From the NCBI RefSeq assembly GCF_000025945.1, contig NC_006138.1, positions 180,001-212,000 on the forward strand: a stretch of 32,000 nt of DNA. The letters run 5' to 3'. Numbering within the stretch: the first letter of the stretch is position 1; every line of letters begins with the position of its first letter. Source of the DNA: Desulfotalea psychrophila LSv54 (lineage in GTDB: Bacteria; Desulfobacterota; Desulfobulbia; Desulfobulbales; Desulfocapsaceae). The notes under the pieces were generated by a model. It saw nothing but the letters and a program-made list of their open reading frames with translations, had not been told where the DNA came from and ran no database searches. The translations under genes and the position numbers were made by a program. Positions 7,571 through 26,968 of the stretch are shown one piece after another.

Positions 7571-7578
7571 ACCCGTGA

Positions 7579-7615: not shown

Positions 7616-7649
7616 AATCCCTTCGTTCCCCCTCTCATCAGGAGATAAT

Positions 7650-7904: not shown

Positions 7905-7987
7905 AGCAGTGCCCCAGTCGCCAAGCGACACCATTGTCTCAGCCATTGGTGAAACAAAAAGTTTCCTCTAGGGCAATTGGAGAAAAA

Positions 7988-9364: not shown

Positions 9365-9764
9365 GGCAGGCCCTGTCCTGATCATTAGCTCGGCTACGCC
9401 TTGTTTTTTTTTGGGAAGTACCTTCTCTTCAGCAACAATGCCTTTGCATGGTAGAGAAATGAGTTCACCGTTTTTTAGAATATTCTTGTAGTAAAGAATC
9501 TTATTCTCATTTTTTTCTTAAATGAATAAGTAAGCCAAACTGTAAGCAGCTGCAGGATCTCCCCTCCCTCCTCCCCCTTAAAAGTTGATGGCTTTTGCTC
9601 CAGAGATATCACAAACTTTTCTATCTTACGAATAGGCTTTGTTGTACCAGACATGTATCATAGGACTTTGCTGAAATAACTGAAGAGTTCAGGGAATGTC
9701 GGCACCTCTCAGGTGAAAGGTATCGTTCAGCCTCAGACATATATATTTAATTGGAGTGTTGAGT

Positions 9765-10124
9765 ATGGATCATAATTTTATCCAGGAAAAACTGCGTGTC
9801 TTTGCTCAAGAGCGTAATTGGGATCAGTTTCATAGTCCCAAAAATCTTGCCATGGCCCTGGCAGGCGAAGCAGGAGAACTCTTAGAAATTTTTCAATGGC
9901 TCACAGAAGATGAATCAAAAAAAGAAAATATCAAGGCGAAGGATAAGCAGTTGGCGGCAGAGGAGCTTGCCGATATACAACTCTACCTCCTGAGGATCGC
10001 TGATAAACTGGATATTAACCTCGAAGAGGCTACCTTCGCTAAATTAGAGAAAAATGCGGAGAAATATCCTATTAGTTTAGCAAAAGATAATGCCATCAAA
10101 TACAATCGGCGCGATGAAAGATGA
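9765..10124 (+). CDS. MazG-like nucleotide pyrophosphohydrolase (small all-alpha NTP-PPase)
   Basis: F..ER.W.QFHSPKNLAMALAGEAGELLEIFQWL ... EELADIQLYLLRIADKLDINL matches the MazG/YpjD-type EExxE/D pattern. The ATG at 9765 is 8 nt after GGAG. Confidence 0.8.
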   Translation: MDHNFIQEKLRVFAQERNWDQFHSPKNLAMALAGEAGELLEIFQWLTEDESKKENIKAKDKQLAAEELADIQLYLLRIADKLDINLEEATFAKLEKNAEKYPISLAKDNAIKYNRRDER

Positions 10125-10440
10125 TCTTATCTTGCAAGCTACGGTAAGCAAGGGCACGCCAGCATTAGAAGAATACTATTCCCACCCTGCTACCCTTGAG
10201 ACTACTCCGTCTCTTTCTGCTGTGGATTCAAAAGCTGGCAAACTGCCCCCCCCCTGAGCCTTTTAATAATTCTTACGAGAAGCGCAATGCCCCATGATAC
10301 CAAAGGGCAGATTAATGACTTAGGGGGGGGAATGCTCATATGGCCTGTTCAAAATGAGATAAGATCAGTTGGTTATAATTGTTGAGGCACAAAACATAAC
10401 CAACTGTTTTAGTTCCGGTTAAGGACCTTGTTATGCATGT

Positions 10441-11055
10441 TTATTTCACAGCCCTCACTACAATATTCTTTCTATCAAGTCTTGTTTCTAACAGGCTAAT
10501 ATTATTAGACACTGACTTTTTCAATATATCTTTATGAAAATCGGAGGCTCGTACTCCAAAATACACAGCAGTAACGCGCCCTTTAATTGGGTAGTATTCG
10601 TCCTGTCCGATGATTCTGTATTCATTTTCATACCTCCAATGCTCTGTTTTATATGATAGAACTTCATTAGGAGTTGCACCTGCAAGGATGGTTGTCCCAT
10701 GCTTTTTCAAGCCACTATCATAATTCACCTCTGTAACATCAGCCTCATAATCAGAAAACTCAATTTCTATTGCCACACCAGTATGTCCATTTGCATAGTG
10801 TGACCACATCCTTATGTCCTCAAGTGATTTTGATAAGCTACATATTTTCAGATCAGAGTTGAACGTTGGTAGATCATCAATGCTTTTATATTGCCTAACC
10901 CTCTTTTGGTTGCCCCGGGGACTAATTATTGTATAAAAAAGCCCCTCAAGAGGGTCATTTAGAGAATCATAACTAGAACAGTACAGTCTTTGGTTTAATA
11001 GAATATCTAAAACAAACTCTAAGTTATCTAATGATCTGAATTTGTAAAGTTTCAT
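10441..11055 (-). CDS. DUF2971-family protein
   Basis: N-terminus LYKFRSLDN......L.NQRLYCSSYDSLNDPLEG and the later MWSHYANGHTGVAIEF are typical of DUF2971. The gene is markedly AT-richer than its neighbours. Confidence 0.7.
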   Translation of the reverse strand: MKLYKFRSLDNLEFVLDILLNQRLYCSSYDSLNDPLEGLFYTIISPRGNQKRVRQYKSIDDLPTFNSDLKICSLSKSLEDIRMWSHYANGHTGVAIEIEFSDYEADVTEVNYDSGLKKHGTTILAGATPNEVLSYKTEHWRYENEYRIIGQDEYYPIKGRVTAVYFGVRASDFHKDILKKSVSNNISLLETRLDRKNIVVRAVK

Positions 11056-11670
11056 CTACGCCTCGTGATAAATGCATAACAAGTTATTATCCGGTTTCCT
11101 GATATCATCGCAAAACACAATTTGACAACGCTTTTTCATCCATGACACCCAGTTTTTAACTGGATATCTCCTACATAATCCAGATCCCTTCCAGCCTTAC
11201 CGATCAACTTACAGCACTCCAACCTAAACGCCCACGGCTACTCCCCCTTACAAAGGGGTGTATTGACGATCTCCAATCATCTTCCTACACTATTTCTTTG
11301 TTATGAGCAATGATTAAGGATTGTTAGATGTACGTGTTGGGGGCCTATGAGTGGTTATCGGAAATTCTGCAGAGCAACATTGGACAATGGCGAAAAAGAG
11401 AGGCACAGGCGCTAGCAGGATTGAAATATAGGAAAGAGTTGTGCTGGTGACAGCTTATTGAATGAGGCCAGCGTGGTGAAGAAAAGAGTATGGGAGCAAG
11501 CAGGGTGCTGTGCTGCAGGTAGAGATGCCGATAAAGCGCATGATTCTTCACACGGAGGAGACACAGGGCGCCCAAACGGTGTAGGCCGCTCACGGGGCCT
11601 CTCCGAGCTAACAGAACTGGCTTTTAAACTTTTGCTGCTTGCTGAAGGAGAGGGAATCTACAGAAGCGGG

Positions 11671-11884
11671 TATCTAGCTCCAGAGGAGATGAAACAGGGG
11701 ATTGGTGGCACAGGAGGGTGAAAATTCTTGTCTGCCCTTGAGTGGGGCGGGGATCGCTGCTCGAAACATTCCTTCAATCTGCTTACATAGTAGTTACACA
11801 GCCACATTGCCACATTGCCTACCAGTTCACAGGACAAAAAAAAAGGTCAATATCACTCAAAGAGTAATATTGACCTTTCTAATT
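11671..11884. repeat. Diverged copy ('arm A') of the sequence that follows the tRNA-Met 3' end; homologous to 24687-24873
   Basis: By-eye alignment shows long identical blocks (TATCTAGCTC.AGAGGAGATGAAACAGGGGATTGGTGGCACAGGAGG; GGGCGGGGATCGCTGCTCGAAACATT; AATCTGCTTACATAGT). Each copy ends in a different terminator hairpin next to the tRNA-derived core. Confidence 0.8.
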
Positions 11885-11935
11885 TGGTGGCGATACAGGG
11901 AATCGAACCCCGGACACTACGGATATGAGCCGTAT
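11885..11935 (-). repeat. Partial tRNA-Met copy (3' 51 nt): distal att core of the island
   Basis: 51/51 identity with 24874-24924 (CCA end back to the anticodon stem of the intact tRNA). Identity ends abruptly at ..GAGCCGTAT. Confidence 0.9.
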
Positions 11936-12108
11936 CGTATGCTGTTTTGATTAACATTGATTAATATTGATTTAACACCTAATTTCAGGTATAAATACAG
12001 AATCGACACATACAAATCAACATCTACAAATTGATTAATATTGACCAAATTTGCTTACATAGTGCTTACACAGTGCTTACACGGTGTCTAGCTCCAGAGG
12101 AACCGGCC

Positions 12109-13428
12109 ATGCCACGATTGACATTAAATAGAATTAGAAACGCTAAGCTCCCACCTAATAAAAAACAGATTTTTCTCTGGGATGAAGATGCCAAGGGCCT
12201 GGGGGTACGTATCACTGGAAGCGCAAAAGTGTTCATCTTCCAAAGTCGCATGCTGATGCCTGATAAAAATGGCATCCTGAAACCATCTACTTTCAGAATA
12301 AAGATAGGCGGATGTGATTCAGTCCTCCTGGAAGATGCACGCAATGTGGCCAGGCGTTATGCGGCACAAGTGGCCGAGGGGATAGATCCACGCCAAGCAC
12401 GTCAACGGACTGCTGAGAACGAAGCCACGGAGAGACAAGAAAGGAAACGACAAGATGTGACTATTGGCAAAGCATGGCCAACCTACATGGAAGAACGTCG
12501 CCCAAACTGGTCAACAAAATACTACTCCGACCATGAGCGCATTATCTCTCCAGGCGGCAAACAGAAAAAGAGAGGCAAAGGCCTGACTGTAGCGGGCCCC
12601 TTAGCCAGTATTGCCAACCTACCTCTTTCAAGTGTGACAGCCGATTCTATAAAAAAATGGTTGGCAGATGAACAGCCCAAGCGCCCGACAGAAACCAGAC
12701 GAGCTTTTGAAATGCTTCGAACCTTCCTGAATTGGTGCGAAGCTGACAAACGCTACCACGGCCTTGCTCCCCCTAATGCATGCTCTGCCAAAATCAAGAA
12801 AGACAACTTGACTAAAAAGAACTCACGGGACGACGCCCTGCAACGAGAGCAGCTTTCTGTCTGGTTTGCTTCAGTACGGCGCTATGAAAATAAAGTTCTA
12901 TCAGCATACGTCCAAATGCTCTTCCTTATAGGTGCCAGACGTGAGGAGCTGCTTTCACTTAAATGGTCTGACGTAGACTTCCGCTGGAAAAAAGTACACA
13001 TCCTTGGCAAAGGCGCTGTGCCGAGAGACCTTCCACTAACCCCATATGTTGCAGCCCTATTATCCAAACTGCCTCGACGTAATGAGTGGGTTTTTTCCTC
13101 AACGCGTGGGAAAGAAGGCCGCCTACAAAGCCCCACCAAAGCTTTTCAAAAGATGATGAGCAGGGCTGAGATTGACGACATTACTCTACATGGGTTACGC
13201 CGATCCTTCTCCACCTTGTCGGAGTGGTTGGAAACGCCGGTTGGGATCGTCTACCAGATCCAAGGGCACGAACCATCAGCCACAGCAGAAAAACATTACA
13301 AGAAGCGACCTGTTGACCTGCTCCGCAAATGGCACATCAAGATTGAAGCCTGGATATTGGAAGAGGCTGGAGTTGAAGTGCCTGGAGCGGATCAAGAAAC
13401 AGGTTTTCGATTAGTAAAAATCGTTTAA
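12109..13428 (+). CDS. int: Tyrosine site-specific integrase, P4-like (N-terminal DUF4102-type arm-binding domain)
   Basis: N-terminus LPPNKKQIFLWDEDAKGLGVRITGSAKVFIFQSR is DUF4102-like. The catalytic region has ..ARREELLSLKWSDVD.., HGLRRSF and a terminal ..EKHY. The ATG at 12109 is 7 nt after AGAGGA; the track's TTG at 12031 is unlikely. Confidence 0.9.
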   Translation: MPRLTLNRIRNAKLPPNKKQIFLWDEDAKGLGVRITGSAKVFIFQSRMLMPDKNGILKPSTFRIKIGGCDSVLLEDARNVARRYAAQVAEGIDPRQARQRTAENEATERQERKRQDVTIGKAWPTYMEERRPNWSTKYYSDHERIISPGGKQKKRGKGLTVAGPLASIANLPLSSVTADSIKKWLADEQPKRPTETRRAFEMLRTFLNWCEADKRYHGLAPPNACSAKIKKDNLTKKNSRDDALQREQLSVWFASVRRYENKVLSAYVQMLFLIGARREELLSLKWSDVDFRWKKVHILGKGAVPRDLPLTPYVAALLSKLPRRNEWVFSSTRGKEGRLQSPTKAFQKMMSRAEIDDITLHGLRRSFSTLSEWLETPVGIVYQIQGHEPSATAEKHYKKRPVDLLRKWHIKIEAWILEEAGVEVPGADQETGFRLVKIV

Positions 13429-13442
13429 GAGGAGATAGGGAT

Positions 13443-14132
13443 ATGAAGTGGATGCCCGTTGTTTCAGAGATTCCTTGGCCAGATGATAACGGAGAAGTGA
13501 TCGGTACGAGGAAGTATATAAGCTGTTATTTTGCTCATTTTTCCGATGATGAAGAGAAAAGGATCTTCAATATCTTAGAGAAATATCCGGTTAGTGAAGT
13601 CAACTTATTCACAAGTATGCTTGCCAAGATATGTACTGATTACGGCGTATTTTTAAAACAGAAAAGAGACCATCAAATACGGAAAGAGATCGACGATAAG
13701 CTCCCGATACTGGAAAAAGCGCACAGTCAGTTAAAATTGCTACAAAAACAAGGACTACCTATAGAACACATAAAATCAGTTCCAGGGGTTTGCCACAGTG
13801 AAGAAGAAAAATCACGACATTATGCTGACAAACATATCAACAAAAAGGCATACTGCGACCTCCCCGTGTGTGCCCGCCGCGCAGAGGAGGCACTGGAGTC
13901 TCTTCTAGGGGTACTGCGAGATCTTCAGCCCGATAAGCCTGGACGTGGCAGAGTAGAAACAGAAGGGGGGTTTGCGCAAGCTATTGCAGACGCTTTTGCA
14001 GAAGTATTCAATAAAAAACCATCGACATGGAGAGAAGGGGTTCTTAGCCAGATATTGGCAATTTGCCTCGAAGGGTTAGGAATTCCACACGAGAATCCAG
14101 AACGGCGCTTAAAAAACCTCGTACATAAATAG
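13443..14132 (+). CDS. Hypothetical protein (229 aa), island-encoded
   Basis: Clean ORF with GGAGATAGGG upstream, starting 14 nt after the int stop. No family recognised. Confidence 0.55.
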   Translation: MKWMPVVSEIPWPDDNGEVIGTRKYISCYFAHFSDDEEKRIFNILEKYPVSEVNLFTSMLAKICTDYGVFLKQKRDHQIRKEIDDKLPILEKAHSQLKLLQKQGLPIEHIKSVPGVCHSEEEKSRHYADKHINKKAYCDLPVCARRAEEALESLLGVLRDLQPDKPGRGRVETEGGFAQAIADAFAEVFNKKPSTWREGVLSQILAICLEGLGIPHENPERRLKNLVHK

Positions 14133-14242
14133 CCTTTTTTTCTTTATTAATGTCTCCTGTATTCCCCACTCATTGCAAGTAATCATACCTCATAACAATG
14201 GCAAATCGTGAATAACCACGAGCCAAAATTATGAGGTAAGCC

Positions 14243-14431
14243 ATGAAGAAAGCATCCTGCTCTAAGCAATTCATTACCACCAACAAATTTTCTGAAATCT
14301 TCGGAGTGAAACCTGATACAGTTCGCAGGAACCTTTGCACCAAAGGTCATTTCTTAGGTATGAAGCCATTAAAGCTGGCAAACGGGCGCTTACTTTGGCC
14401 AGCAATCACCCCCGATCAACTAAAAGGGTGA
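14243..14431 (+). CDS. Small helix-turn-helix DNA-binding protein (excisionase/AlpA-like candidate)
   Basis: 62 aa with GAGG RBS. The segment FITTNKFSEIFGVKPDTVRRNL...GRLLWP resembles the HTH of small island/prophage regulators. Its position between int and the replication genes fits this role. Confidence 0.5.
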   Translation: MKKASCSKQFITTNKFSEIFGVKPDTVRRNLCTKGHFLGMKPLKLANGRLLWPAITPDQLKG

Positions 14432-14435
14432 TTTC

Positions 14436-15353
14436 ATGAATACCAAAAGAAAAGCGGTCCCTCCCCAAAAGGTTGGCGCCATGGGAGAAACCGCTTCAAA
14501 TCAACAAGCCAAGTATAGTTCTTTTCCTGACAATCAGCAAGGACCGACCGACAATCCTGCAGCCAGTCAGCGGCAACGTATTTTTCCCCACCCGAAAGCA
14601 GACGAGCCGACGACAGACATTGCTTTCACAATCATCACCAACCACGACGGCCCACTGACAAAGACGATCCGGCCAGATGGCCAAGGCGGGATCATCAAGA
14701 AGCCTGCTGCAAATCTCGTCAGAGGTGTAACGAAAAGGGTTACCATGCCCTTTAGGAAGTTTGGCCCTTTTCTGCGGACATTGCAGAATAATCAGGCCCT
14801 CTGCCACGGCGTCAGTGATTATCCCCAAGCCAACATTACCTCAAGAGCCAAGTTTAACGGGGAGCCGGACACAATCACAAGGACATCGGAATATTTCCAC
14901 TATCCAACAGGTGCCGGTATCGGCATGTTCGACCACGACCCGAAACCTGGGCAGAAAACGTTGAGCGCAGATGAGTTGCTTGACATTATATATAGTGTCT
15001 GCCCTGATTTTCGCCGCCTGTCGACATGGTGGACGCCGTCAACGAGTTCCTGCATTTTTGATAACAACAAAAATGAGCTGACGGGAATTGGAGCCGGTTT
15101 CCACCTGTACTTCCCGTTTGAGCCTGCAGATAAATTACCGGAATTTGCTGACTGGCTGTCCAGGCAACTTTGGTTAGCAGGCCACGGCCACATCTTTATT
15201 AGCCGAACCGGTTCACTACTTACCCGGACCGTCTTCGATCTGACAGTTTTCTCCCCGGAACGATTGGATTTCGTAGCCGGGGCCGACTGTATTGACTGCA
15301 ATCAACGGTTGCCGGAACCTGTGTACCGCAAAGGATTGGAGGTGTGGGCATGA
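14436..15353 (+). CDS. Hypothetical protein with a weak AEP (primase-polymerase)-like motif pattern
   Basis: 305 aa. Ordered motifs GIGMFDHD (hhhDxD), GAGFHLYF (sxH) and ERLDFVAG (hD). The stop overlaps the helicase start (ATGA at 15350-15353). Confidence 0.4.
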   Translation: MNTKRKAVPPQKVGAMGETASNQQAKYSSFPDNQQGPTDNPAASQRQRIFPHPKADEPTTDIAFTIITNHDGPLTKTIRPDGQGGIIKKPAANLVRGVTKRVTMPFRKFGPFLRTLQNNQALCHGVSDYPQANITSRAKFNGEPDTITRTSEYFHYPTGAGIGMFDHDPKPGQKTLSADELLDIIYSVCPDFRRLSTWWTPSTSSCIFDNNKNELTGIGAGFHLYFPFEPADKLPEFADWLSRQLWLAGHGHIFISRTGSLLTRTVFDLTVFSPERLDFVAGADCIDCNQRLPEPVYRKGLEVWA

Positions 15354-17302
15354 TAGAGTTTACACCGCTAACTGAAGCGCAAAACATGCTGTATGAGGCC
15401 ACCGTTTCGGTTGCGAAAGAAGAAGTCCACGCGGAAGCTGACAGAATCAGACAACAGTACATGTCAGTTGAAGCTATCAAGCTGGCAGAGAAAACTGGTG
15501 TCGATGTTGAGCATGCTGAAGAGACTGTCCGCTTGCGATGTAACGGACACTTGAGCCCAGAGGATATCATTTATTTCCAGAACGGTAGCACGGCCACGGT
15601 GGAAGAAATGCTTGCGGACAGAAGCAAATATGACGGCACGCCCTGTGCTGACCCGCTTGAACGTGAAGAAGGGTTGAATCGGGCAATGTTCTACGCCAAC
15701 GCTGATACCGGCAAGCCACTCATCCACTCTTTCCTTCATGGTGGCCAGATACACCACTTGACCGGCCGACAGGAAGAGCCGGTGGAAGAACATGCACCAT
15801 CCTTTAGCGAACTGCTTGAACGCGCAGCTACCCTGAAGGCAGGAGATACAAAGGGCATGAAAGATATTCTCGAACTTGCGACAGCCCTAGACTCAATCGA
15901 GGAACAGGAACTTTTGCGCAAAATCAAGAAAAACACAGGGATGCCCCTGCAGGCCATGCGCTCGTACACACGCAAGGGTCAAGTGGATTCCAAGGATTTG
16001 GATCACCTCGATATCGCACGTAAGCTCCTGGAAGAGATCGGTAAAGAGAACGTACTGAACTGCGAGGATGGAGTTTTTATATGGCGAGAAAAAGGAGTAT
16101 GGGAGCCGATGAGAAAAGGCGAACTTAAGCACCGATTGCAGAAACTGATAGAGGGGAAGATGCGGGTTATGTCTCAGTGGGTTGTGGGGGCAACAGAGGT
16201 GTTCACAAATGACGTGTATCGGGCGAATCATGAATTCAATATTGGTGATCCGAATGTCATTAACTGCCTTAACGGGGAACTGCACCTAAATCACAAAACC
16301 GGTTCGTGGGAGCCGAAGTCTCATGATAAGCTGGCCTATCGGACTAGTCAGATTCCTGTCGAGTTTGACCCTACTGCAACTGCACCACGATTTAAACAGT
16401 TCTTGAATGAGATATTCGAAACTGATGAGGATAGCCAAGACAAGACAAGAGCGCTGCTGGAAATGTGTGGTTACACGATGGTGGCCCACTGCTCGTATGA
16501 ACTGTTCGTCATCCTTATAGGTACTGGCGCGAACGGTAAAAGCGTTTTTCTTTCGCTACTAGAGGCCATTGTCGGGCCGAAAAACACAGTAGGGGTTCAG
16601 CCAAGCCAGTTCGACAACCGGTTTCAGCGAGGGCACATGCGCCATAAACTCGCCAATATCGTGACGGAGATCAAGCAAGGCGAGGTCATTGCCGATGCAG
16701 AGCTAAAAGGGATTGTCTCAGGTGAACCGTCGACGGTCGAGAACAAATTCAAAGACCCTTTCACCATGCGGCCCCATGTAACGTGTTGGTTTGCGACAAA
16801 TCATATGCCACATACCCGTGACTTTTCGGAGGCGCTGTTCAGGCGCGCCTTGATCCTGAAATTCAACCGCGTCTTCTCAGACGAGGAAAAGAACCCGAAG
16901 CTCAAGGATGAATTGTTTGCAGAATTGCCAGGCATCCTGAATCTGGCTCTCCATGCTTACGCTAATGCTGTTTTGAATGGTTTTACAAAGCCTGACAGCA
17001 GTGAACAGGCGAAAGAAGAATGGCGACTTGAAGCAGATCAGGTTCAGCAGTTCGTTGAGGATTGCTGTGAAAAATCGCCTTACGAGGAAATTGAGTCTTC
17101 AACGCTATTCAGAGCATATCGATCATGGGCAGAGACGAACGGTATACGAAAAATGTTGAGCCAAAAGAGTTTCAGAGACAGGCTCACACGCCTTGGATTT
17201 GGCAGCAAACGGAATAAACAGGCTAGGCTTGTCACAGGGATTGCCATGGCCAACAATTTCCCTGGTAGTGCTGCCGATCTGTTGGGGGAACTTCTCTCTT
17301 GA
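15350..17302 (+). CDS. Phage/plasmid primase P4-family C-terminal domain / D5-like SF3 helicase
   Basis: Walker A ILIGTGANGKSVF, Walker B-like LANIVTEI and motif C WFATNHMP, followed by FRRALILKFNRVF. The ATG at 15350 is 7 nt after GGAGG. Confidence 0.85.
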   Translation: MIEFTPLTEAQNMLYEATVSVAKEEVHAEADRIRQQYMSVEAIKLAEKTGVDVEHAEETVRLRCNGHLSPEDIIYFQNGSTATVEEMLADRSKYDGTPCADPLEREEGLNRAMFYANADTGKPLIHSFLHGGQIHHLTGRQEEPVEEHAPSFSELLERAATLKAGDTKGMKDILELATALDSIEEQELLRKIKKNTGMPLQAMRSYTRKGQVDSKDLDHLDIARKLLEEIGKENVLNCEDGVFIWREKGVWEPMRKGELKHRLQKLIEGKMRVMSQWVVGATEVFTNDVYRANHEFNIGDPNVINCLNGELHLNHKTGSWEPKSHDKLAYRTSQIPVEFDPTATAPRFKQFLNEIFETDEDSQDKTRALLEMCGYTMVAHCSYELFVILIGTGANGKSVFLSLLEAIVGPKNTVGVQPSQFDNRFQRGHMRHKLANIVTEIKQGEVIADAELKGIVSGEPSTVENKFKDPFTMRPHVTCWFATNHMPHTRDFSEALFRRALILKFNRVFSDEEKNPKLKDELFAELPGILNLALHAYANAVLNGFTKPDSSEQAKEEWRLEADQVQQFVEDCCEKSPYEEIESSTLFRAYRSWAETNGIRKMLSQKSFRDRLTRLGFGSKRNKQARLVTGIAMANNFPGSAADLLGELLS

Positions 17303-17426
17303 TGAACGCGTATTGACTTCGTCATATAGACCTGGGTTACTGAAATGGTCCCCATTATTATACGACTGAGCTTTCCCACATTTGGGCATCAGCACCATTT
17401 CCCTTCCTATTTACGGGTGGGCACAT

Positions 17427-17590
17427 GGTGATGGGTGACGGGTGGTGACGGGTGGTGACGGGTTTTTCCACATTACCCAACTTTCAGAAAAAATAAAGTT
17501 CAGTAATTCAAAATCTTCTTTTTCTCATAAATATATCCATGTTATAAAAAGCGTCACCATCCGTCACCACATGGGAAGCATTCTCACCAC
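17427..17590. repeat. Iteron cluster flanking an AT-rich stretch: putative replication origin of the island
   Basis: GGTGATG GGTGACGGGT GGTGACGGGT GGTGACGGGT at 17427-17463. An AT-rich stretch of about 85 bp follows. Inverted copies GTCACCATCCGTCACCAC lie at 17553-17570, plus CTCACCAC at 17583-17590. Confidence 0.55.
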
Positions 17591-17828
17591 GACACATATA
17601 GAAAGCACAAAATGACATAAGAGTAAGGGGATATACAATACTATAGCCTGAGCTTCCCTACTCTCCTTTACTCACTTGTCCTGGTGGAAGGGGGGGGGTA
17701 AAAGTTTGGGGCTTAATTACCTAAGACCGGGATTGCCCTCTAACGTTAACACTAACTCTGAATAATCCACGACAACAACCTTCAGGAATCGTTGTGCGCG
17801 CGCGAGGCGAATTGAAGTTTTCCGGGTA

Positions 17829-18109
17829 GTGCTTGACGCCTCTTTATGGATTTTAAGCAAGGCCGAAGAAAAGCACAGGACCCCCCATCAAAGGTCACTG
17901 GCTGAAACGGCGATGTATCGCTACAAGCAGTTGATCAGCGACAAACTGAACCTTCGCGAATACAACGGCCAAACAGGTAAGTCAGCTTGCGTCCAAGGCT
18001 TTGAACAAAATCAATGCTTTCGGAATACCTGTTCGAGAGGTTTTTTAGTAAAATGGAATGGAGCAGAGAGGAACTGATTTTCTTCTCTCATGATTTATGC
18101 AACAAGGCC
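17829..18109 (+). mobile_element. IS5-family (IS903-like) remnant: frameshifted 3' end of the transposase gene plus the terminal inverted repeat
   Basis: The translated ..HQRSLAETAMYRYKQLISDKLNLREYNGQ.. matches the C-terminus of IS903-group transposases, and ALNKINAFGIPV continues in another frame. GATTTATGCAACAAGGCC (18092-18109) matches 16 of 18 positions of my recollection of the IS903 end (GATTTATTCAACAAAGCC). No 5' part of the IS is present. Confidence 0.75.
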
Positions 18110-18141
18110 CCAACCTACTCCAATTTCACCCTTACCAAGAT

Positions 18142-19100
18142 CCTTCAATGCAGTCACCCCTTTCGAGGTGATTGATACTCGCTCAGGGTTGCTCATATGC
18201 TCCTGCAGGGTCCTTCAATGTAGTCACCCCTTTCGAGGTGATTGATACATTTTTTCAGGTCGATATAGCGCATATCTTTGGCGCTTCAATGTAATCACCC
18301 CTTGCGAGGTGATTGACACGCAGACCTGCAGGCCGACCGTTATAACAGTCCTTGCTTCAATGCAGTCACCCCTTTCAAGGTGATTGATACCGTTTGCCAC
18401 AGGAAAGAGCATCGGCGGTTGATCGCTTCAATGTAGTCACCCCTTTCGAGGTGATTGATACTTCCCGAGATCGGTCAGGTCATAGACGCCAAACTGCTTC
18501 AATGTAGTCACCCCTTTCGAGGTGATTGATACGTCGACAAGGTAGGAGCCGGGCCGAGAGTAGGGGCTTCAATGTAGTCACCCCTTTCGAGGTGATTGAT
18601 ACTCGTCGTCCCAATCCATTCCGCTTGCAACAAACTGCTTCAATGTAGTCACCCCTTTCGAGGTGATTGATACGTACAGACAGGCTTATCATCAGAGTAA
18701 TAGGTGGCTTCAATGTAGTCACCCCTTTCGAGGTGATTGATACATGGGCCGAATGGCAACTCTACGAGTTCTATCCTGCTTCAATGTAGTCACCCCTTTC
18801 GAGGTGATTGATACTGTCTATCGCCTTGATAGCGGTAGATCCCTTGATGCTTCAATGTAGTCACCCCTTTCGAGGTGATTGATACCCGATGATCGGGCAA
18901 TACGTCACTTGTATCGGGTCGCTTCAATGTAGTCACCCCTTTCGAGGTGATTGATACAACCTCGGTCGATGTTTGTGGGGCTGTGTTGATTTGCTTCAAT
19001 GTAGTCACCCCTTTCGAGGTGATTGATACCAGCTCAAACTGATTTTGAGGACAGTGATAAACAGCTTCAATGTAGTCACCCCTTTCGAGGTGATTGATAC
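18142..19100 (-). CRISPR. CRISPR array, 14 x 37-bp repeats and 13 spacers (33-35 bp)
   Basis: The plus-strand repeat is GCTTCAATGTAGTCACCCCTTTCGAGGTGATTGATAC. Repeats start at 18142, 18212, 18283, 18354, 18425, 18496, 18566, 18637, 18707, 18778, 18849, 18921, 18993 and 19064. Repeats 5-14 are identical and repeats 1-4 carry 1-3 substitutions, so the low-coordinate end is the trailer. The minus-strand form GTATCAATCACCTCGAAAGGGGTGACTACATTGAAGC has a 7-bp stem with a GAAA loop and an ATTGAAGC 3' end. Confidence 0.97.
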
Positions 19101-19249
19101 TGCCAGTTAACTAACATGCTAAAAACACATATTCATCCAAGGTGTTTCCGCGAACACACTCAGAAGAACATTACAAGTTGCTGTGAATATATGCGAAAAC
19201 AGAAAATCCTTTATAATATCAATAAGTGCGAACAAGGCCACTTTCCTTG
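19101..19249 (-). promoter_or_regulatory. Putative CRISPR leader
   Basis: AT-rich 149-bp non-coding stretch between the last cas-linked ORF and the conserved end of the array. Confidence 0.5.
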
Positions 19250-19933
19250 CTAGTGAGACCTTCGCGCAGGCAGTAAATATCCCATCTGACCGTTGCGCTG
19301 AATAGTAGCCTCATAAAGATCCCCCCCCCACTCAGTACTCTTTGATTGTACAACTGCCCAAACCCCACTTATGTCTAAAGGAACTGACCATGTTACCCAC
19401 TGATAAAATCCCTTTCTAACACCTAAGCTCGTAACAGGGAGTGCTTCTGCGGCAAGCCACTGCCCAGCAATAACCCCGCGATGTGGAGAAGATGTTGGCG
19501 CCTTCATACCACCAACTTTTGCGGCCATTTTGTTAGCACCAACATCCCAACCCAGACTTGTTATGTTATCTTCGTTCATCCATGGGAGGTTGAGGGCATT
19601 TAAAATATCATCTCGCGTAACACTTATCAGCATTGTTGTAATAACATTGCTAAAACTCACTCTTCCTGCTGTGAGATCTAACGGTATTTTTTCTGCTGTC
19701 TTACTTTTGGGAAGTTCCTCCAAAAGAGAACTCCCCTCTGCGAGATACCTTGACAAGCTCTCTAAAACAATATTTTCATCTACACCAAGTAAAACAGGAT
19801 GCTGATGCTCCCACAATAAATGAGCTTTATGCCCCATACGAGATACAATTGAAAAACACCCCACTGCCGCCATCCAAGCCTGAGCATTTGTCTCAAATAA
19901 ACCTTGCATTTTATATTGCACGTTATTCCTCAC
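19250..19933 (-). CDS. Cas-linked protein of unknown family (up to 227 aa); positional candidate for a Csb3/Cas8g2-like or small-subunit component
   Basis: The ORF overlaps the cas3 stop, is on the same strand, and is the last gene before the leader. The start is uncertain: GTG at 19933, GTG at 19921 (5 nt after GAGGA) or ATG at 19909. No motif recognised. Confidence 0.45.
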   Translation of the reverse strand: MRNNVQYKMQGLFETNAQAWMAAVGCFSIVSRMGHKAHLLWEHQHPVLLGVDENIVLESLSRYLAEGSSLLEELPKSKTAEKIPLDLTAGRVSFSNVITTMLISVTRDDILNALNLPWMNEDNITSLGWDVGANKMAAKVGGMKAPTSSPHRGVIAGQWLAAEALPVTSLGVRKGFYQWVTWSVPLDISGVWAVVQSKSTEWGGDLYEATIQRNGQMGYLLPARRSH

Positions 19934-22184
19934 TTTTACTTTGTACCCAATCTGCTAGCCGAACCATTGCCTCAAGATATGCCAACTGCCATGCCCCATA
20001 TTCTTCATTCAACCTACAGGTCATACTTCCCCAATCTGATCCCCCTGCTTTATGCCACAGGGCAAAGTCTCCGCTTATTGACAAGACACTTCTGTTGTAT
20101 CCATGATGAGTCCCAACAAGATACTTCAACAAGTCGCTCACCTCATCTGACAACATTGATACAGATGCAACTTCATGCCGCCAACCCTTGGGCAAACCGG
20201 ACATACTACGAGCAACCTTCGCTGCCCATGGAGAAATGTGATTTGACTTTGCCAAGGGTGTGGAACATGCTCCAAGCATAGTTTGAAACCGAGGATCTTG
20301 CTTGCCGATATCATGCAAGCGGGCTGCTTGTCGAACAGCCTCATCTGCTGAGAAATTTTTTGCGACTTCAAACACATTGTCTAAGTGGTCACTCAAAGCA
20401 ACTTCATCACCAGATCGTTTTCTTCGTGGAGTTTCTGTAACTATAACTCCTGCTGGATAAAAGGTGATTAAAGGCTTCACAAAAGGTGCATTGGCTTCTT
20501 TGAGAAGCTCGGGAATGTCAGAATCTTCACCTGCTCCTACTAATCTAAACTTTGCTCCTACTTGATTACCTAGATCCTTAACAGGGTCACATTTCTGAGG
20601 CATCCATCCCCACTCATCATAGCCACCATACCGCGTCGGTATGACAATCATACACCCACCGCGTATGCTGTCACCCCTTACAACCCTATCGCCTACAACA
20701 ACAGACCGACGCCCTAGCCAACGTACAACCTCATAAATAGGACATGGCATAGCTTCTGCCATTACTGGAGGTGCTGCTTGAACAATTTCAACCCATTGCT
20801 CAGTTTCACAGGGAAGGTCTTCACGCCACACTACCTGAACAGTGATATTGTCTTTATCGTCACCATGGAGCCAAGGACTAATATCCATATCGACAGATGG
20901 CATGGTTTGCCTCAAACAACGAAGATCTGTATGACTCAAAGGGAAAGGAAGGGAAATTTCTCGCATTGGGGGGCTGCTTGCTTCTATAGCTTTTTTTATT
21001 GCAAGTACGCCAAAATCAACCCGCTTATTTTTACCCTTACCGTGTTGTATTTTTTTGAGCCATGACCATGTACTTTTTAGAATTTTCTTCCCATAAACTT
21101 TGCAATCCTGATCCTTTCCCAGATCAAGATAAACAATCGCCCCCTGACATGCCTGTAATTCTCCAAGCCGATCTAGTCGCCCAAATCTTTGTTGCAAGGC
21201 ATCAATTGGTGCATTTTGAGTTACAAGGGCATCAAAATCTAAATCCGCCCCCACCTCAATGGTTTGTGTTGCCACCACAAAAAGAGGCTGCCTCCCTCGT
21301 CCTCTACTACCACTGAGCATTTGCGGAAGGTATTGATTAAGTATTTCATCTTTATCAGCTGGTCTCACGCGACCTGTGAGGAGAATCTTCTCGCCTGGCA
21401 ATTTAGCAAAAATTGCTCGTGCATGTTTAGTGGTGTTGCATACCACGGCCACAACGCCTTTTACATCCGCCATTAGAAGGTTCGCTTCTTTCACCATTGT
21501 TGACAAAAATTGCTCGTCCGATGGTTTGACCAACTTAACAATCTTTTTACTGGCTAATCTTTTCTTGAGGACAGGATGAGCATAATCTTTAGCAGACAAA
21601 GTCATAGTCCTGTCATCTGTTACAGGTGTCGCTGTCATTGTAACAACGTGCCAGGGTAATATTGAGGGGGGGCGAAGATTCATAATCTGCTTTAAAGTCT
21701 CCGCAAATGGGGTAGAGATATGCGCCTCATCTAAAACAATCATCGCGTCATTCCCAATCAAAGCAGCGTGAATAGGAGCTGACTTCGGACTGACACCATA
21801 CCCGCGCCATAAAAGACGTGAACCAGCTTGGTCTACTGTGGAAACAATAACAACAGGCTCATGTGGATTCAGCATCCACGAGTCATCAATTGTTACTCCA
21901 CCTCTCATTTTTATTACGGTACAACCGATTTTCTCTGCATACTCAGTAACAGAATCTACAATAAGGCGACGATCCACGATATAAATAAGGCGAGTAGGGA
22001 CTTTCGCTCCAATCTCCACAGCATAATGCCAGGCAGCGATTATGGCGGTTTTACCTGAAGCAGTAGGGGTTGATATCGACTCAGGTGGTTGACCTGCTAA
22101 CACCCTTTCTGCAAGAGACAATTGCCAAGGAAATGGACTATATCCATGTTTTCCCTGATACCACTCATCAAATTTGAGAGACAT
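19923..22184 (-). CDS. cas3: Cas3 helicase-nuclease with C-terminal HD domain (type I-G/I-U architecture)
   Basis: SF2 helicase motifs TPTASGKTA (I), VLDEAH (II), MTATP (III), VATQTIEVGADLDFD (V) and QQRFGRLDR (VI). The C-terminal HD-like region has ..LSDHL.., RLHDIGK, WRHEVAS and GTHHG. Confidence 0.9.
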   Translation of the reverse strand: MSLKFDEWYQGKHGYSPFPWQLSLAERVLAGQPPESISTPTASGKTAIIAAWHYAVEIGAKVPTRLIYIVDRRLIVDSVTEYAEKIGCTVIKMRGGVTIDDSWMLNPHEPVVIVSTVDQAGSRLLWRGYGVSPKSAPIHAALIGNDAMIVLDEAHISTPFAETLKQIMNLRPPSILPWHVVTMTATPVTDDRTMTLSAKDYAHPVLKKRLASKKIVKLVKPSDEQFLSTMVKEANLLMADVKGVVAVVCNTTKHARAIFAKLPGEKILLTGRVRPADKDEILNQYLPQMLSGSRGRGRQPLFVVATQTIEVGADLDFDALVTQNAPIDALQQRFGRLDRLGELQACQGAIVYLDLGKDQDCKVYGKKILKSTWSWLKKIQHGKGKNKRVDFGVLAIKKAIEASSPPMREISLPFPLSHTDLRCLRQTMPSVDMDISPWLHGDDKDNITVQVVWREDLPCETEQWVEIVQAAPPVMAEAMPCPIYEVVRWLGRRSVVVGDRVVRGDSIRGGCMIVIPTRYGGYDEWGWMPQKCDPVKDLGNQVGAKFRLVGAGEDSDIPELLKEANAPFVKPLITFYPAGVIVTETPRRKRSGDEVALSDHLDNVFEVAKNFSADEAVRQAARLHDIGKQDPRFQTMLGACSTPLAKSNHISPWAAKVARSMSGLPKGWRHEVASVSMLSDEVSDLLKYLVGTHHGYNRSVLSISGDFALWHKAGGSDWGSMTCRLNEEYGAWQLAYLEAMVRLADWVQSKSEE

Positions 22185-23457
22185 TGTTTAGCTCCTCTGA
22201 GTAAAAGGGTCTACATAAACCACTGCCAAAATACCGATCGGCACCGATTATAATTGGCCCTATTATATATGATGACCATACTATAACGACATGGCACATA
22301 TATCGCCTGTTCTTCCTTGAGGGATATTTTCTTGCATCTATAGTGCCTTTTATCGGGGAGGTATTGCCACAAGAAATGTACGCAGGCAAAGGTAAGCCCA
22401 TTTTAGCCAAGCTTTCAGCAACAATGCTTTCAGGAGAAACCTTCTTTGTAGGCCAACGATCAAGAGCTACAGGGGTAACAGTTGCAAAAGATTTTGAGGC
22501 CTTATTCCAAGCACTACTTTGTAAACCCTTCAAACCAACATTGTCTAGCTCTAGCTCAACCTCTCCAAGATTTCTTACCCTCATCAAAGATGCACCTACA
22601 ACTCCAACCTCTAAGTCACTTACGTCTGACGGAAGCCAACAACCTAGCCCTAGGATATGTCCCTTTGCATACTTATGACCAACATCAGGAATTGCCGCCC
22701 AAGCAACATGACGATAATCTCCGTGACCATGTACAAGTGGTGGCAAGGATGAATCTTCAGCCTGACTTATAACTGCCCTCCGTAACTTATCTGTCCAATA
22801 CGTTGTTTGGTGGATATCAAGCTGTCTTTGAGGACGTAGTACAAAAAGCTCCCCCCATCTTTCATTAGAGACAAGAGTCTTCTTTTCTCTATACGAGGTA
22901 TAAGGCGCAGCAGGGCTTCTCGCACCTACTTCAAAATGCGCTATAAGTTCTTGCAACCTACCCGTATATGGAGTCCTAACCCGTAAACCTCCATCTTTAT
23001 CTGGTACCCAATTAAACTTAACACTATCAGCAGGAACAACCCTTCCGATAACAAGACTTGTGGCTCTGCCGATGTGAGTCAGTTGTTCAACAATTTTTGT
23101 AAGAGGAGCAATACATTTTTCGGGAACATCTCTCCAAAGATAACTCACGATATTATTCTTTGGATGAACAACTGGGAGATGTCTTGCTGTACCCGTATGA
23201 TAATCTTTTCCTCTACGAAAATTTTCCGGCACATATTGCAGCGGGGCTCTAGGACACAATGCTTCTTCAAATTGCATCAAAGGAGGCGATTCAAGGTACT
23301 TTAACACCTCCAGATCTTCGCCTATTTCAGCGGCTGTTGCGACCATGGCTTGAAATTTTCGATCTGGGGCCGGAGGCCATTCACCTCTTTGAGGTGATGC
23401 TGGATCTGATAACTGCGGCTTAACCAGAAATTCTATCTGCGCCGCAAAGTCACTCAT
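22168..23457 (-). CDS. csb2: Csb2-like (GSU0054-family, Cas5/Cas6-type RAMP) protein of type I-G systems
   Basis: The N-terminal GEWPPAPDRKFQAMVATAA and C-terminal ..IGPIIIGADRYFGSGLCRP resemble the Csb2 family as I recall it. The ATG at 23457 follows GAGGAGAGGA and overlaps the cas7 stop (ATGA). Confidence 0.65.
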   Translation of the reverse strand: MSDFAAQIEFLVKPQLSDPASPQRGEWPPAPDRKFQAMVATAAEIGEDLEVLKYLESPPLMQFEEALCPRAPLQYVPENFRRGKDYHTGTARHLPVVHPKNNIVSYLWRDVPEKCIAPLTKIVEQLTHIGRATSLVIGRVVPADSVKFNWVPDKDGGLRVRTPYTGRLQELIAHFEVGARSPAAPYTSYREKKTLVSNERWGELFVLRPQRQLDIHQTTYWTDKLRRAVISQAEDSSLPPLVHGHGDYRHVAWAAIPDVGHKYAKGHILGLGCWLPSDVSDLEVGVVGASLMRVRNLGEVELELDNVGLKGLQSSAWNKASKSFATVTPVALDRWPTKKVSPESIVAESLAKMGLPLPAYISCGNTSPIKGTIDARKYPSRKNRRYMCHVVIVWSSYIIGPIIIGADRYFGSGLCRPFYSEELNNVSQI

Positions 23458-24490
23458 TCCTCTCCTCGTGGAAGAAGACCCACCAGAGCACTCCCAGCCG
23501 TCAAACATATCGGCTCTTGGTTAAAAGAAAGACCATGTTCTTTTGCCACAGCCAATGCTTCTTTTAGCTTAGCGGTTGACGAAGGAAGATTGAATGCTAC
23601 CTGCTCGCCATTCGATCTTAAAACATAGGACTCACGACTAGCTGTATAAAGCTCACAACCAGAACGTAAATCTAATTTGTCCATGACCAGAGAAACTCCT
23701 AGTAAAGCTAACTGTATGAGTACCTCACGGCCTGCTTGATCTCGTTCTGGGCTAGATGTACCAGCTTCATCAGGAAAACTATAGCGGCTTAACCGCGTCA
23801 GAGATATTGCTCCGTTTAACTCTATACGTCCTGCAAAGACACCTTTATCCGCTGTATCTGGAATATCACTATGCCCCAATTTAGAAGGGTTTTACCACCT
23901 TCTGGATCGGGAGTAATTGTTCCATCCTTCAATGAATGGAGGGGCAGAGTTAGCTTTGATCCCCAAGGGGGTCAATTCTTTGGGCTTGTATGCTGAGCCA
24001 CAAAAACATCATATCCCCATATTTCGCATGACACTGATCGAGATATCTTCACTCCTTTTACACTTTTTCCAGCATGAGAATCCCAGCCACCTAAAGAAGT
24101 GTCATGGAGCATAAGTAAAAGAGCAGTTGCATTCTTTGTGGTACTACTGAGTAATTGATGTCCTATATCAGAATTTCTCCATGAGTCTTCCCCCAAAAAG
24201 GAGTCACGAAGAATGGCATCATATATCCTATGAGGCAACTCATTCACAGAGAGCGTTTGATTGGCAACAGATGTTGTTATCTCTGGAAGGATGCCAAGAG
24301 CGGCAAGCTCTGCTTCAATACGATTTGCAAATGATCCCACAGAATCAACCTGCACAGCCTTAGCTTTGCCCGTCCCTTTATCTAAAGCAACAAAGTTGTG
24401 ACCTACACCTGCAAATGTTGGTGGGTATATGTGATCACTACCATTAACATTCTTGAGGTTTGCTTTAATAGAAATAGCGACATCTGACAT
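23454..24490 (-). pseudogene. cas7: Cas7 (Csb1/GSU0053-like RAMP) gene, interrupted
   Basis: The N-terminal piece (24490 to 23972) starts at MSDVAISIK... with AAGGAG 7 nt upstream and contains ..LGGWDSHAG... The C-terminal piece (23879 to 23454) is in a different frame. The 23880-23975 interval has stops in all three frames. The combined length of about 340 aa fits a single Cas7. Confidence 0.6.
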
Positions 24491-24686
24491 ATTCTTTCTC
24501 CTTAAATGGGTGGTACAAACATGGATGACAACCAACTTGATTTCGAGGCGTCTATATGATAGGAGCAATAGACATTATTCCACTATTTCATTCAAGTCTT
24601 TGTTTTTAAAAAAGAATAAAAGTTACTGAGTCTTTATGAGACGGAGAGAGAGAGAAAGACTCTACCTCAAAGAAGGGGTTGAGCCG

Positions 24687-24873
24687 TATCTAGCTCAAGA
24701 GGAGATGAAACAGGGGATTGGTGGCACAGGAGGTAAAAACTCTTCGTTTGCTCTTGGGGTGGGCGGGGATCGCTGCTCGAAACATTGATCCAATCTGCTT
24801 ACATAGTGCTTACACGAGCAAAAGACACAAAAAAAGGGTTACAGCCGAATGACTGTAACCCTTTGGAATAACT
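24687..24873. repeat. 'Arm B': island sequence immediately downstream of the tRNA 3' end, homologous to 11671-11884
   Basis: See the 11671-11884 entry. It lacks the CCACATTG-repeat segment of about 27 bp that is present in arm A. Confidence 0.8.
24829..24862 (-). terminator. Intrinsic terminator of tRNA-Met
   Basis: On the minus strand, AGGGTTACAG-tcattcgg-CTGTAACCCT is followed by T7, 11 nt after the CCA end. Confidence 0.75.
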
Positions 24874-24950
24874 TGGTGGCGATACAGGGAATCGAACCCC
24901 GGACACTACGGATATGAGCCGTATGCTCTAACCGACTGAGCTACATCGCC
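24874..24950 (-). tRNA. tRNA-Met (anticodon CAU; elongator type, though Ile2/lysidine identity cannot be excluded)
   Basis: Hand-folded 77-nt cloverleaf: GGCGAUG UA GCUC AGUCGGUUA GAGC A UACGG CUCAUAU CCGUA GUGUC CGGGG UUCGAUU CCCUG UAUCGCC A CCA. The G1-C72 pair and the absence of a 3xGC anticodon stem argue against an initiator tRNA. Confidence 0.9.
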
Positions 24951-24968
24951 GCGCTGTGAAGCAAGGAC

Positions 24969-24997
24969 TTTATACTTAATTACCCTCTTGCTGTCAA
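24969..24997 (-). promoter_or_regulatory. Sigma70-type promoter of tRNA-Met
   Basis: On the minus strand, TTGACA (24997-24992), a 17-bp spacer and TATAAA (24974-24969), about 19 nt upstream of the mature tRNA 5' end. Confidence 0.7.
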
Positions 24998-25181
24998 CAT
25001 ATTTTCCCTGTTTCTTTTGTTAAATTTCGTTTTCCAGGGCCTTTTTTCCTGAGACAAAAGGAGGGCCTGCCTAAGCCACTATTGTTGCGAAATAAAACGA
25101 TAGATGCGACAGGGCAGCGAAGAGATCTCTCCGACAAGAAAAAAGAACCGACACGGACAAGGGGAGAAGCAGAGAGGGTAC

Positions 25182-25218
25182 AAAAAAAGGGGGGACAGAC
25201 ATAAAGCCGGTCCCCCCC
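25182..25218 (-). terminator. Intrinsic terminator after groEL
   Basis: On the minus strand, GGGGGGAC-13 nt loop-GTCCCCCC is followed by T7. Confidence 0.7.
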
Positions 25219-25256
25219 AGGTACAACTAAAGCAAATGTGCTTCAGGTACGGCTGA

Positions 25257-26968
<1,712 letters not shown>

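Follow-up and report, generated by a model that had tools for sequence, protein, structure and literature searches.

A compact type I-G CRISPR-Cas cassette, probably interference-only cargo of a tRNA-Met element, in Desulfotalea psychrophila LSv54

Type I-G CRISPR (clusters of regularly interspaced short palindromic repeats)-Cas systems (formerly I-U, Dpsyc/GSU0054), as found in Geobacter sulfurreducens and Thioalkalivibrio sulfidiphilus (PMC9638904), combine the fusion protein Csb2 with Csb1/Cas7g and with a Cas3g whose HD domain is C-terminal. They have no separate cas11, their hairpin-forming repeats of 36–37 nucleotides (nt) end in ATTGAA(A/G)C, and a Cas8g-type subunit tethers Cas3 to the complex in the studied system. 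Indeed, Cas3 joins the T. sulfidiphilus complex only via Cas8g, whose N-terminal domain is alpha/beta and Cas8a-like and whose C-terminal domain is helical and Cas11-like; the size of Cas8 varies greatly among I-G variants (Shangguan et al., PMC9638904). Csb2, the Cas3g with C-terminal HD, the lack of a separate cas11 and the hairpin repeats recur, together with a disrupted Csb1/Cas7g gene and a short Cas8g homologue, in a locus that we analysed in 32,000 nt of the chromosome of Desulfotalea psychrophila LSv54 (NC_006138.1, positions 180,001–212,000; the window, to which coordinates refer unless a relative is named). It departs from the canonical plan in several respects. The canonical order is cas3-cas8g-cas7-csb2, whereas here it is cas7-csb2-cas3-cas8g; the canonical Cas8g has about 650 amino acids (aa), whereas the homologue found here has 227 aa, apparently without the helical, Cas11-like part at the C-terminus. 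Every subunit is smaller, neither a cas4/cas1 fusion nor cas2 is present, and the carrier is a small integrative element. We read the locus, with a probability of about 0.75, as a compact, interference-only type I-G (Dpsyc) system within a "Cas3-extension" branch, carried as mobile-element cargo.

Public resources already contain this subtype and this locus, as well as a related profile model for each of the proteins, and RefSeq already labels Cas3g, Csb2 and Csb1 here as type I-G, so that a preliminary description of this DNA, made from the sequence alone, had overrated its novelty. Exact matches link the window to deposited LSv54 proteins (integrase DP0176, primase DP0178 and DP0179, Cas3g DP0186, Csb2 DP0187, the Cas7g fragments DP0188 and DP0189, GroEL CAG34919), and the 227-aa product is 100% identical to a D. 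psychrophila protein. The "Dpsyc" subtype of TIGRFAMs takes its name from D. psychrophila, which makes this locus the subtype prototype. PADLOC's copy of the TIGRFAM names does contain "subtype Dpsyc"; the term is absent from Haft 2005. Three large-subunit variants of I-G appear in the papers searched (M. barkeri Cas8, Csx17 and Csb3). Our literature searches for adaptation-less or island-borne I-G systems returned no description, and a compact, adaptation-less, island-borne I-G clade with a one-domain Cas8g is undescribed in the literature searched.

The cassette, its array and a miniature Cas8g

The locus lies on the minus strand and runs away from a tRNA-Met gene as cas7g/csb1, csb2, cas3g, a 227-aa open reading frame (ORF), leader and array:

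23454..24490, minus strand: cas7g/csb1, disrupted (TIGR02570, tblastn, alignment to orthologues)
24490-23972, minus strand: N-terminal cas7g fragment DP0189, 172 aa (deposited protein)
23879-23454, minus strand: C-terminal cas7g fragment DP0188, 141 aa (deposited protein)
22168..23457, minus strand: csb2 (DP0187), Cas5-Cas6 fusion, 429 aa from the RefSeq start, intact (TIGR02165, PF09609)
19923..22184, minus strand: cas3g (DP0186), 753 aa, superfamily 2 (SF2) helicase plus C-terminal HD nuclease, intact (TIGR02621, PADLOC)
19250..19933, minus strand: 227-aa ORF, here called mini-Cas8g, of the compact "Cas3-extension" family; "hypothetical" in RefSeq (PADLOC, NCBIfam, AF2, Foldseek)
19101..19249, minus strand: leader, 149 nt, from the mini-cas8g stop to the first repeat
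18142..19100, minus strand: CRISPR array with 14 repeats (37 nt each) and 13 spacers (33–35 nt)

Neighbouring cas genes overlap by 4, 17 and 11 nt (cas7g/csb2, csb2/cas3g and cas3g/mini-cas8g), a translational coupling that takes in all four co-oriented genes. Cas3g matches TIGR02621 over its full length (615 bits against a cutoff of 400, E 2.6e-184), as it does PADLOC PDLC01309 (1201 bits); its HD domain occupies residues 597–750 (TIGR01596 and PF18019), and both the helicase and the HD motifs are conserved. Csb2 scores 373 bits with TIGR02165 (cutoff 45, E 2.5e-111), 691 bits with PF09609 and 760 bits with PADLOC Cas56g, and an alignment with eight orthologues shows an invariant His389 in the Cas6-like C-terminus. 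The N-terminal cas7g fragment matches TIGR02570 at E 3.9e-62, and cas7g is 52–61% identical to intact orthologues. Three of the proteins are thus clearly Csb2, Cas3g and Csb1/Cas7g, and the fourth matches a Cas8g model. The family profiles (TIGR02165, TIGR02621, TIGR02570 and those of PADLOC), together with the RefSeq names, bear out the preliminary description as regards the subtype, the csb2-like Cas5/6 RAMP (repeat-associated mysterious protein) gene and the cas3 with a C-terminal HD domain. Its picture of four co-oriented, overlapping genes stands for orientation and overlaps and fails for cas7g, which is not intact.

In the minus-strand sense the repeat reads GTATCAATCACCTCGAAAGGGGTGACTACATTGAAGC, with a period of 70–72 nt. 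Ten repeats, those nearest the leader (beside 19101), have one and the same sequence; at the trailer end, on the low-coordinate side, four are degenerate. All 13 spacers are unique. The 3' end of the repeat, ATTGAAGC, fits the 36–37-nt hairpin repeats ending in ATTGAAxC that adjoin I-G loci. Comparison of six repeat variants from related loci revealed compensatory changes in six of the seven pairs of a 7-base-pair (bp) hairpin, and an invariant 3' end, CATTGAAGC. The leader, too, is placed as in the related loci, where the array begins about 120–150 nt past the small gene. The 14-repeat array, the leader after the last ORF and the ten identical repeats had all been described correctly beforehand.

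The preliminary description had found no recognisable large subunit and had left the 227-aa ORF as unknown. This ORF matches the PADLOC Cas8g model PDLC01514 (I-U large subunit) at E 2e-18 and, at E 1.4e-15, the NCBIfam model NF049934 ("type I-G CRISPR-associated protein, Cas3-extension family"), the latter match aligning residues 78–174 with profile positions 127–222 of 299. Its family, of ~225 residues, has a mean column identity of 59% and invariant GWD and QWLAAE motifs in the family alignment. An AlphaFold (AF2) model computed on that alignment is confident (predicted local distance difference test score, pLDDT, 86; predicted template modelling score, pTM, 0.88) and has a mixed alpha/beta fold. 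Compared with the PDB by Foldseek, it comes closest to a chain of 649 residues in 8b2x, a structure of the I-G effector from T. sulfidiphilus (probability 1.00, E 5.7e-4), and next to 7tr6_C, a type I-A Cascade chain. Since only Cas7, CRISPR RNA (crRNA) and Cas8g are modelled in 8b2x, the 649-residue chain must be Cas8g. Fold comparison alone reached these structures; a sequence search of the PDB with the family profile gave no match even at E = 10. We therefore reject the absence of a large subunit on the strength of the PADLOC and Foldseek matches. The 227-aa protein is, as predicted from homology, a miniature Cas8g, one third of the size of Cas8g1 and apparently without the Cas11-like domain. 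A viral origin was also considered and rejected, as the mini-Cas8g profile had no match when run over viral contigs.

The mini-Cas8g family profile was searched against 1.84 billion representative proteins, where it found 336 clusters (at 50% identity). Most members have 280–335 aa, and the compact-family profile reaches this ~300-aa family at E down to 3e-31. A few members have 1306–1367 aa and match at their extreme C-terminus, at residues about 1140–1310 in P0110 and P0120, so that they are fusions to Cas3g; hence the name "Cas3-extension". The longer relatives constitute a long-form variant (NF049934; PDLC01514), which is like the window in gene order and in having a short Cas8g gene that directly overlaps cas3g, and which in some genomes has the short Cas8g fused to the Cas3g C-terminus. 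Indeed, a short cas8g directly follows cas3g in the window, with an overlap of 11 nt, and does the same in all related loci. Among the long-form loci, L015 reads csb1-csb2-cas3-short cas8g; L016 and L017, on contigs that begin in or just before csb2, read csb2-cas3-short cas8g; and L018, ordered likewise, continues with toxin-antitoxin genes and a Cas4-Cas1 fusion. In the large "Cas3-extension" branch, cas7-csb2-cas3-short cas8g is therefore the standard order, whereas it had been claimed to be unusual. The two forms differ in size, every subunit of the compact clade being shorter: Cas7g has 344 aa as against 414–419 in the long form, Csb2 about 420 as against 411–505, Cas3g 753 as against 752–1055 and Cas8g about 225 as against about 280–356. 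They differ also in that the long form can carry cas4/cas1 downstream, as in L018, whereas compact loci show no adaptation genes.

The compact clade and the missing adaptation genes

Seven compact loci besides the window were compared, namely L001 from D. mediterraneum, L003/L004 from two assemblies of Ca. Thiodiazotropha endoloripes, L005 from D. marinum, and the metagenomic L009, L011, L012 and L014; with D. psychrophila, four compact loci thus come from named organisms. L008 (too short) and L010 (error-rich and distantly related, though its gene order is the same) were left uncounted. In L010 (PYLN01000150.1) every gene of the cassette is frameshifted, and it looks like an error-rich assembly and not a divergent family. 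The four-gene cassette is present in all seven loci, and the array lies directly past the small gene wherever the contig continues, that is in at least six of the seven.

No ORF of at least 100 aa in the window matches Cas1, Cas2 or Cas4. As an NCBIfam scan of 95 ORFs reported only the best 25 families, we did not use it for absence and relied instead on a PADLOC scan of 90 stop-to-stop ORFs of at least 55 aa, covering 8300–25500 outside the cas genes, which gave no Cas match. Apart from cas3 and the primase described below, the window holds no ORF of 500–700 aa. Similarly, no Pfam match to Cas1, Cas2 or Cas4 was found in the flanks of the compact loci, up to 10 kb, where gene calls existed. 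The absence of cas1, cas2 and cas4 noted in the preliminary description is thus confirmed by both scans, and an adaptation-less cassette, which it had seen here alone, recurs in all seven other compact loci examined. A degenerate repeat pattern, run over species-representative genomes, returned only two Desulfogranum arrays, each beside its own cassette; the scan did not return the source genome or Thiodiazotropha, and is uninformative on second arrays there.

Could an ordinary, complete I-G locus have lost cas4/cas1-cas2 only in LSv54, by deletion, by insertion sequence-mediated rearrangement or through misassembly? A transposase remnant does lie at the trailer end of the array, and the long-form relative L018 has cas4/cas1 downstream of its short cas8g. 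The compact clade, however, has the array right after the small gene and no adaptation genes where gene calls are available, which argues that adaptation was lost before LSv54 arose. Moreover, no fragment of Cas1, Cas2 or Cas4 was found in any frame between 8300 and 25500, and the replicon is a finished chromosome of 3,523,383 bp (3.52 Mb). We therefore give a loss confined to LSv54 hardly any credence, and on these same grounds reject misassembly as its cause.

Carrier elements

The preliminary description had linked the cassette to a mobile element, and this link is borne out by a tRNA-bounded island with integrase and primase, as well as by the relatives, most of which lie beside mobile-element genes. 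The features of the island are:

24874..24950, minus strand: tRNA-Met (CAT), integration target (tRNA call)
24869..24924, no strand: right attachment (att) copy, the tRNA-Met 3' half (56-nt direct repeat)
11880..11935, no strand: left att copy, a displaced tRNA-Met 3' half at the far island end (repeat of 24869..24924)
12031..13428, plus strand: tyrosine integrase, DP0176 (PF00589, PF13356; phrog_1, 3e-35)
14436..17302, plus strand: P4-family primase/helicase in two ORFs, DP0178 (305 aa) and DP0179 (652 aa) (D5_N, DUF5906, Pox_D5; TIGR01613, 8e-66)
17434..17568, no strand: iteron-like repeats, GGTGACGGGT three times plus inverted GGTGACGG, downstream of the primase
17829..18077, plus strand: remnant of a transposase C-terminus, adjoining the degenerate array end (phrog_2262, 3.5e-5, profile positions 248–285 of 309)
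24491..24868, minus strand: upstream region of the cas operon and tRNA-side island arm (tRNA terminator hairpin 24864–24833; repeats 24781–24815)

The two att copies are 56 nt long and 98% identical, the identity stopping inside the tRNA, and the island between them, integrated in tRNA-Met, measures about 12.9 kb. A tyrosine integrase and a direct repeat of the tRNA 3' end thus bracket a segment that contains, besides the integrase, a 229-aa ORF, the primase/helicase, the iteron-like repeats, the transposase remnant (which has no Pfam match), the array and the cas genes. DP0178 and DP0179 overlap by 10 nt and phrog_16593 spans both; their D. marinum homologue (L005, 14321–17332) is a single ORF of 1003 aa with collinear tblastn matches, so that the split is either a frameshift or a sequence error. 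The three copies of GGTGACGGGT lie in tandem at 17434–17463 and the inverted GGTGACGG ~100 nt off, at 17561–17568 (four matches as against 0.41 expected); they are possibly the replication origin of the island. A P4-family primase/helicase is a mark of P4-like satellites. We rejected that label, since no genes for capsid redirection or helper exploitation were found: psu, sid and delta were not found, the 229-aa ORF, which is the one remaining island ORF of at least 100 aa, has no Pfam, PHROG or PADLOC match, and a cos site was not searched for. We accordingly call the island an integrative element and not a satellite.

The relatives have carriers of several kinds. In T. endoloripes (L003) a 13.6-kb island lies between 21-nt copies of the tRNA-His 3' end (3654–3674 and 17289–17309), with the compact I-G cassette, its array of 18 repeats, an integrase and genes of phage-like type (YonV_C) inside it; the sister assembly L004 has three extra upstream integrase genes, with Bro/pRha/ANT and YonV_C genes. 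A D5 primase and an integrase lie upstream of the D. marinum cassette. L011 has an excisionase and an integrase after the array, L014 has Bro/pRha/ANT and YonV_C genes, and L012 has a protein with a TnsA-like N-terminal domain and TraF upstream. The carrier backbones are non-homologous, their primases being ~29% identical, and the orientation of the cassette within the island differs. The cassette therefore behaves as cargo moved between elements.

Some further features of these neighbourhoods were noted. In D. marinum L005, a tRNA-Pyl (CTA anticodon; ARAGORN) at 13621–13704 lies ~2 kb downstream of the array; farther on, a second primase-like gene (1003 aa) together with another integrase suggests that two elements lie side by side. 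In the window, motifs like TGCTTACATAGTGCTTACAC occur at 11765–11799, 12037–12082 and 24781–24815, near both island ends and just inside the integrase 5' region, and may be arm-type integrase binding sites. Beside the left att copy, some 190 nt (11670–11879) are 86% identical to the in-island arm 24686–24868, a likeness that suggests a remnant of a second, related element in tandem at tRNA-Met; no third att copy was found. The DNA left of the island (8300–11880) has a lower G+C content, of 0.40–0.44, and encodes a MazG-like pyrophosphatase (9756–10124) and, on the minus strand, a DUF2971 protein (10441–11055) with a match of 1.4e-61 to PDC-S31, a candidate defence system in PADLOC. A 300-nt segment, 8000–8299, is duplicated ~1 kb off at 9047–9346 with 81% identity.

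Proposed role and the state of the LSv54 copy

On the reading given at the outset, transcription of the array would proceed from the leader, on the minus strand. If the systems of T. sulfidiphilus and B. animalis are a guide, Csb2 would then use its Cas6-like C-terminal domain to cut the repeats next to the 7-bp hairpin, leaving an 8-nt 5' handle, AUUGAAGC, after which six to seven Cas7g subunits would coat the guide while Csb2 remains on the 3' hairpin. Mini-Cas8g, as a Cas8g cut down to the N-terminal alpha/beta domain, may bridge the Cas7 filament and Cas3g; a bridging role is suggested by the Cas8g-dependent binding of Cas3 in T. sulfidiphilus, by the 11-nt gene overlap and by the natural Cas3g fusions. 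Cas3g, with its helicase and C-terminal HD domain, would finally degrade matching DNA flanked by a protospacer-adjacent motif (PAM). As there is no acquisition machinery, the spacers would form a static set or be replenished in trans. The leader-proximal spacers are shared by two nearly identical assemblies of T. endoloripes, which differ, besides one assembly gap, only by one internal spacer; this fits, weakly, a static array. Given that the cassette is cargo of a tRNA-Met element without acquisition genes, its most likely role is to defend that element and the host from competing phages or elements by means of fixed or trans-acquired spacers.

Mobile-element CRISPR-Cas systems without acquisition genes are known in other types. 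The Tn7-like I-F3, I-B and V-K transposons and the plasmid type IV systems reportedly lack cas1 and cas2 and have short arrays; they are said to be without a target-degrading nuclease and to serve transposition or plasmid competition. The likeness in gene content and location raises the possibility that the present cassette, too, has a non-immune function for its element, such as guide-directed integration, partition or gene regulation, and the TnsA-like domain protein and TraF upstream of L012 point the same way. We regard this as very unlikely. The transposon-borne systems have lost the nuclease, whereas here the helicase and HD nuclease motifs of Cas3g persist in all loci and the protein is apparently complete in the window; no self-targeting spacer was found in the window or the loci compared. 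The carriers use tRNA-targeting tyrosine integrases and thus have no need for RNA guidance. A Tn7-like CRISPR-associated transposon in particular was rejected: the window contains no TnsA, TnsB, TnsC or TniQ gene, and its Cas3g is intact.

The reading as interference-only cargo also has to face the state of cas7g. The preliminary description had treated cas7 as one gene, but the deposit holds two ORFs. The gene is 1037 nt long, as against 1035 nt (344 aa) in four intact orthologues, and a MAFFT alignment with these places ~6 indels between about 24130 and 23890, in the conserved DPLGI region; there is an in-frame stop at 23972–23974, and tblastn aligns the gene with the intact orthologues only via two frames. 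As deposited, then, the LSv54 copy may be inactive. We note beside this that the Csb1/Cas7g models TIGR02570 and PF09617 span only the N-terminal 168–178 residues of ~344 aa, almost exactly the extent of the truncated DP0189 (172 aa; 23972–24490); it is speculation that the models were possibly shaped by this frameshifted protein as a seed.

Two accounts of the broken frames may be given. In one, the LSv54 copy is a dead relic: cassette and island are decaying through true frameshifts, the array end has been eroded by an insertion sequence, and no CRISPR ribonucleoprotein forms. The cas7g lesions in a conserved region favour it, as do the primase, in two ORFs here and in one in D. marinum, the transposase remnant adjoining four degenerate trailer repeats, and the fact that the frameshifts are identical in the deposited genome and the RefSeq proteins. 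The statement in the preliminary description that identical repeats argue against an old relic was, given cas7g, the split primase and the transposase remnant, too strong. In the other account the splits in cas7g and the primase could be sequence errors instead of decay. The groEL gene of the same window (minus strand, ORF 25355–26911) is also frameshifted in the deposit, near 25590, and its genuine C-terminus lies in another frame, where a 9-nt tandem repeat, CATTCCGCC, at 25263–25304 encodes the C-terminal GGM repeats; the deposited GroEL (CAG34919, Swiss-Prot Q6ARV6, 518 aa) carries an out-of-frame tail. A broken groEL would hardly be compatible with a viable cell, which makes it plausible that the 2004 assembly contains indel errors. 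Also at odds with decay are the full-length cas3g, csb2 and mini-cas8g with their conserved motifs, the ten identical leader-proximal repeats, and the bunching of the cas7g indels within ~250 nt instead of over the whole gene. We would put the chance that the LSv54 copy is a dead relic only a little short of even. As a separate observation, three overlapping plus-strand ORFs in different frames at 7109–8317 (a DsrC-like N-terminal ORF, then two without a family match) may be another frameshifted gene.

Several further points count against our reading of the locus. The compact clade is represented here by eight loci, the window included, which is a small sample with several members on short contigs. 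The NF049934 score of mini-Cas8g, 57.8 bits, lies below the curated cutoff of 65, which explains the "hypothetical" label in RefSeq, and the structural match to 8b2x is moderate (template modelling score, TM, 0.51, query-normalised; 11% identity). Its size and predicted secondary structure suggest that mini-Cas8g is equivalent to the N-terminal domain only. D. mediterraneum L001 alone shows just a tRNA-Arg, 600 nt upstream, and an integrase is absent within 10 kb. Promoter prediction called no consensus sigma-70 site in the leader, and the broken cas7g of the deposit makes activity in LSv54 doubtful. Finally, the spacers yielded no targets in plasmids, phages, IMG/VR or the window. The 13 window spacers have no self match in the window or in any related locus compared; the whole array had no match in plasmids and one chance-level match of 22 nt in phages (E = 1); three spacers had none in an exact scan of IMG/VR. 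The 51 spacers of six related arrays had no match in phages, and comparing all 64 spacers with each other's loci gave a single chance-level match of 18 nt. Since these searches gave no target, they demonstrate neither defence nor competition between elements.

A more far-reaching reading, which we offer tentatively and on balance hold unlikely, is that the compact clade is the smallest Cas3-bearing type I effector (~1,750 aa, four genes, 5.2 kb) and a cargo weapon moving between unrelated, satellite-like or prophage-like elements of ~13 kb. Mini-Cas8g would then be a detachable C-terminal extension of Cas3g, with the nuclease pre-docked on the Cas7 filament, and renewal of the arrays would come about solely in trans or when a whole cassette is exchanged. 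Reduced type I effectors of another kind are the minimal I-F2 and the phage-encoded compact I-F systems. These (PMC12956352, PMC10161043) resemble the window in a reduced Cascade with the large subunit lost or shrunken and the nuclease retained, and some of them are on mobile elements with incomplete gene sets; their subunits (Cas5f/Cas6f/Cas7f, Cas2-3), however, are unrelated, and I-F2 is without Cas8, whereas the window keeps mini-Cas8g.

At the level of the window, then, this is the known Dpsyc prototype, in which mini-cas8g is under-annotated as hypothetical and the deposited frameshifts, that of groEL included, need checking. The locus belongs to a known subtype, of which it is a reduced variant borne by a mobile element, and it may be inactive in LSv54. 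If the compact clade is active, it would represent a naturally minimised Cascade-Cas3 of four genes and ~5.2 kb, with a Cas8 of one domain and without a Cas11 domain. It would then offer a test case for the minimum large subunit needed in PAM reading and Cas3 loading and a candidate compact tool for long-range deletions, and would add a nuclease-proficient type I case to the mobile-element CRISPR-Cas systems without acquisition genes.

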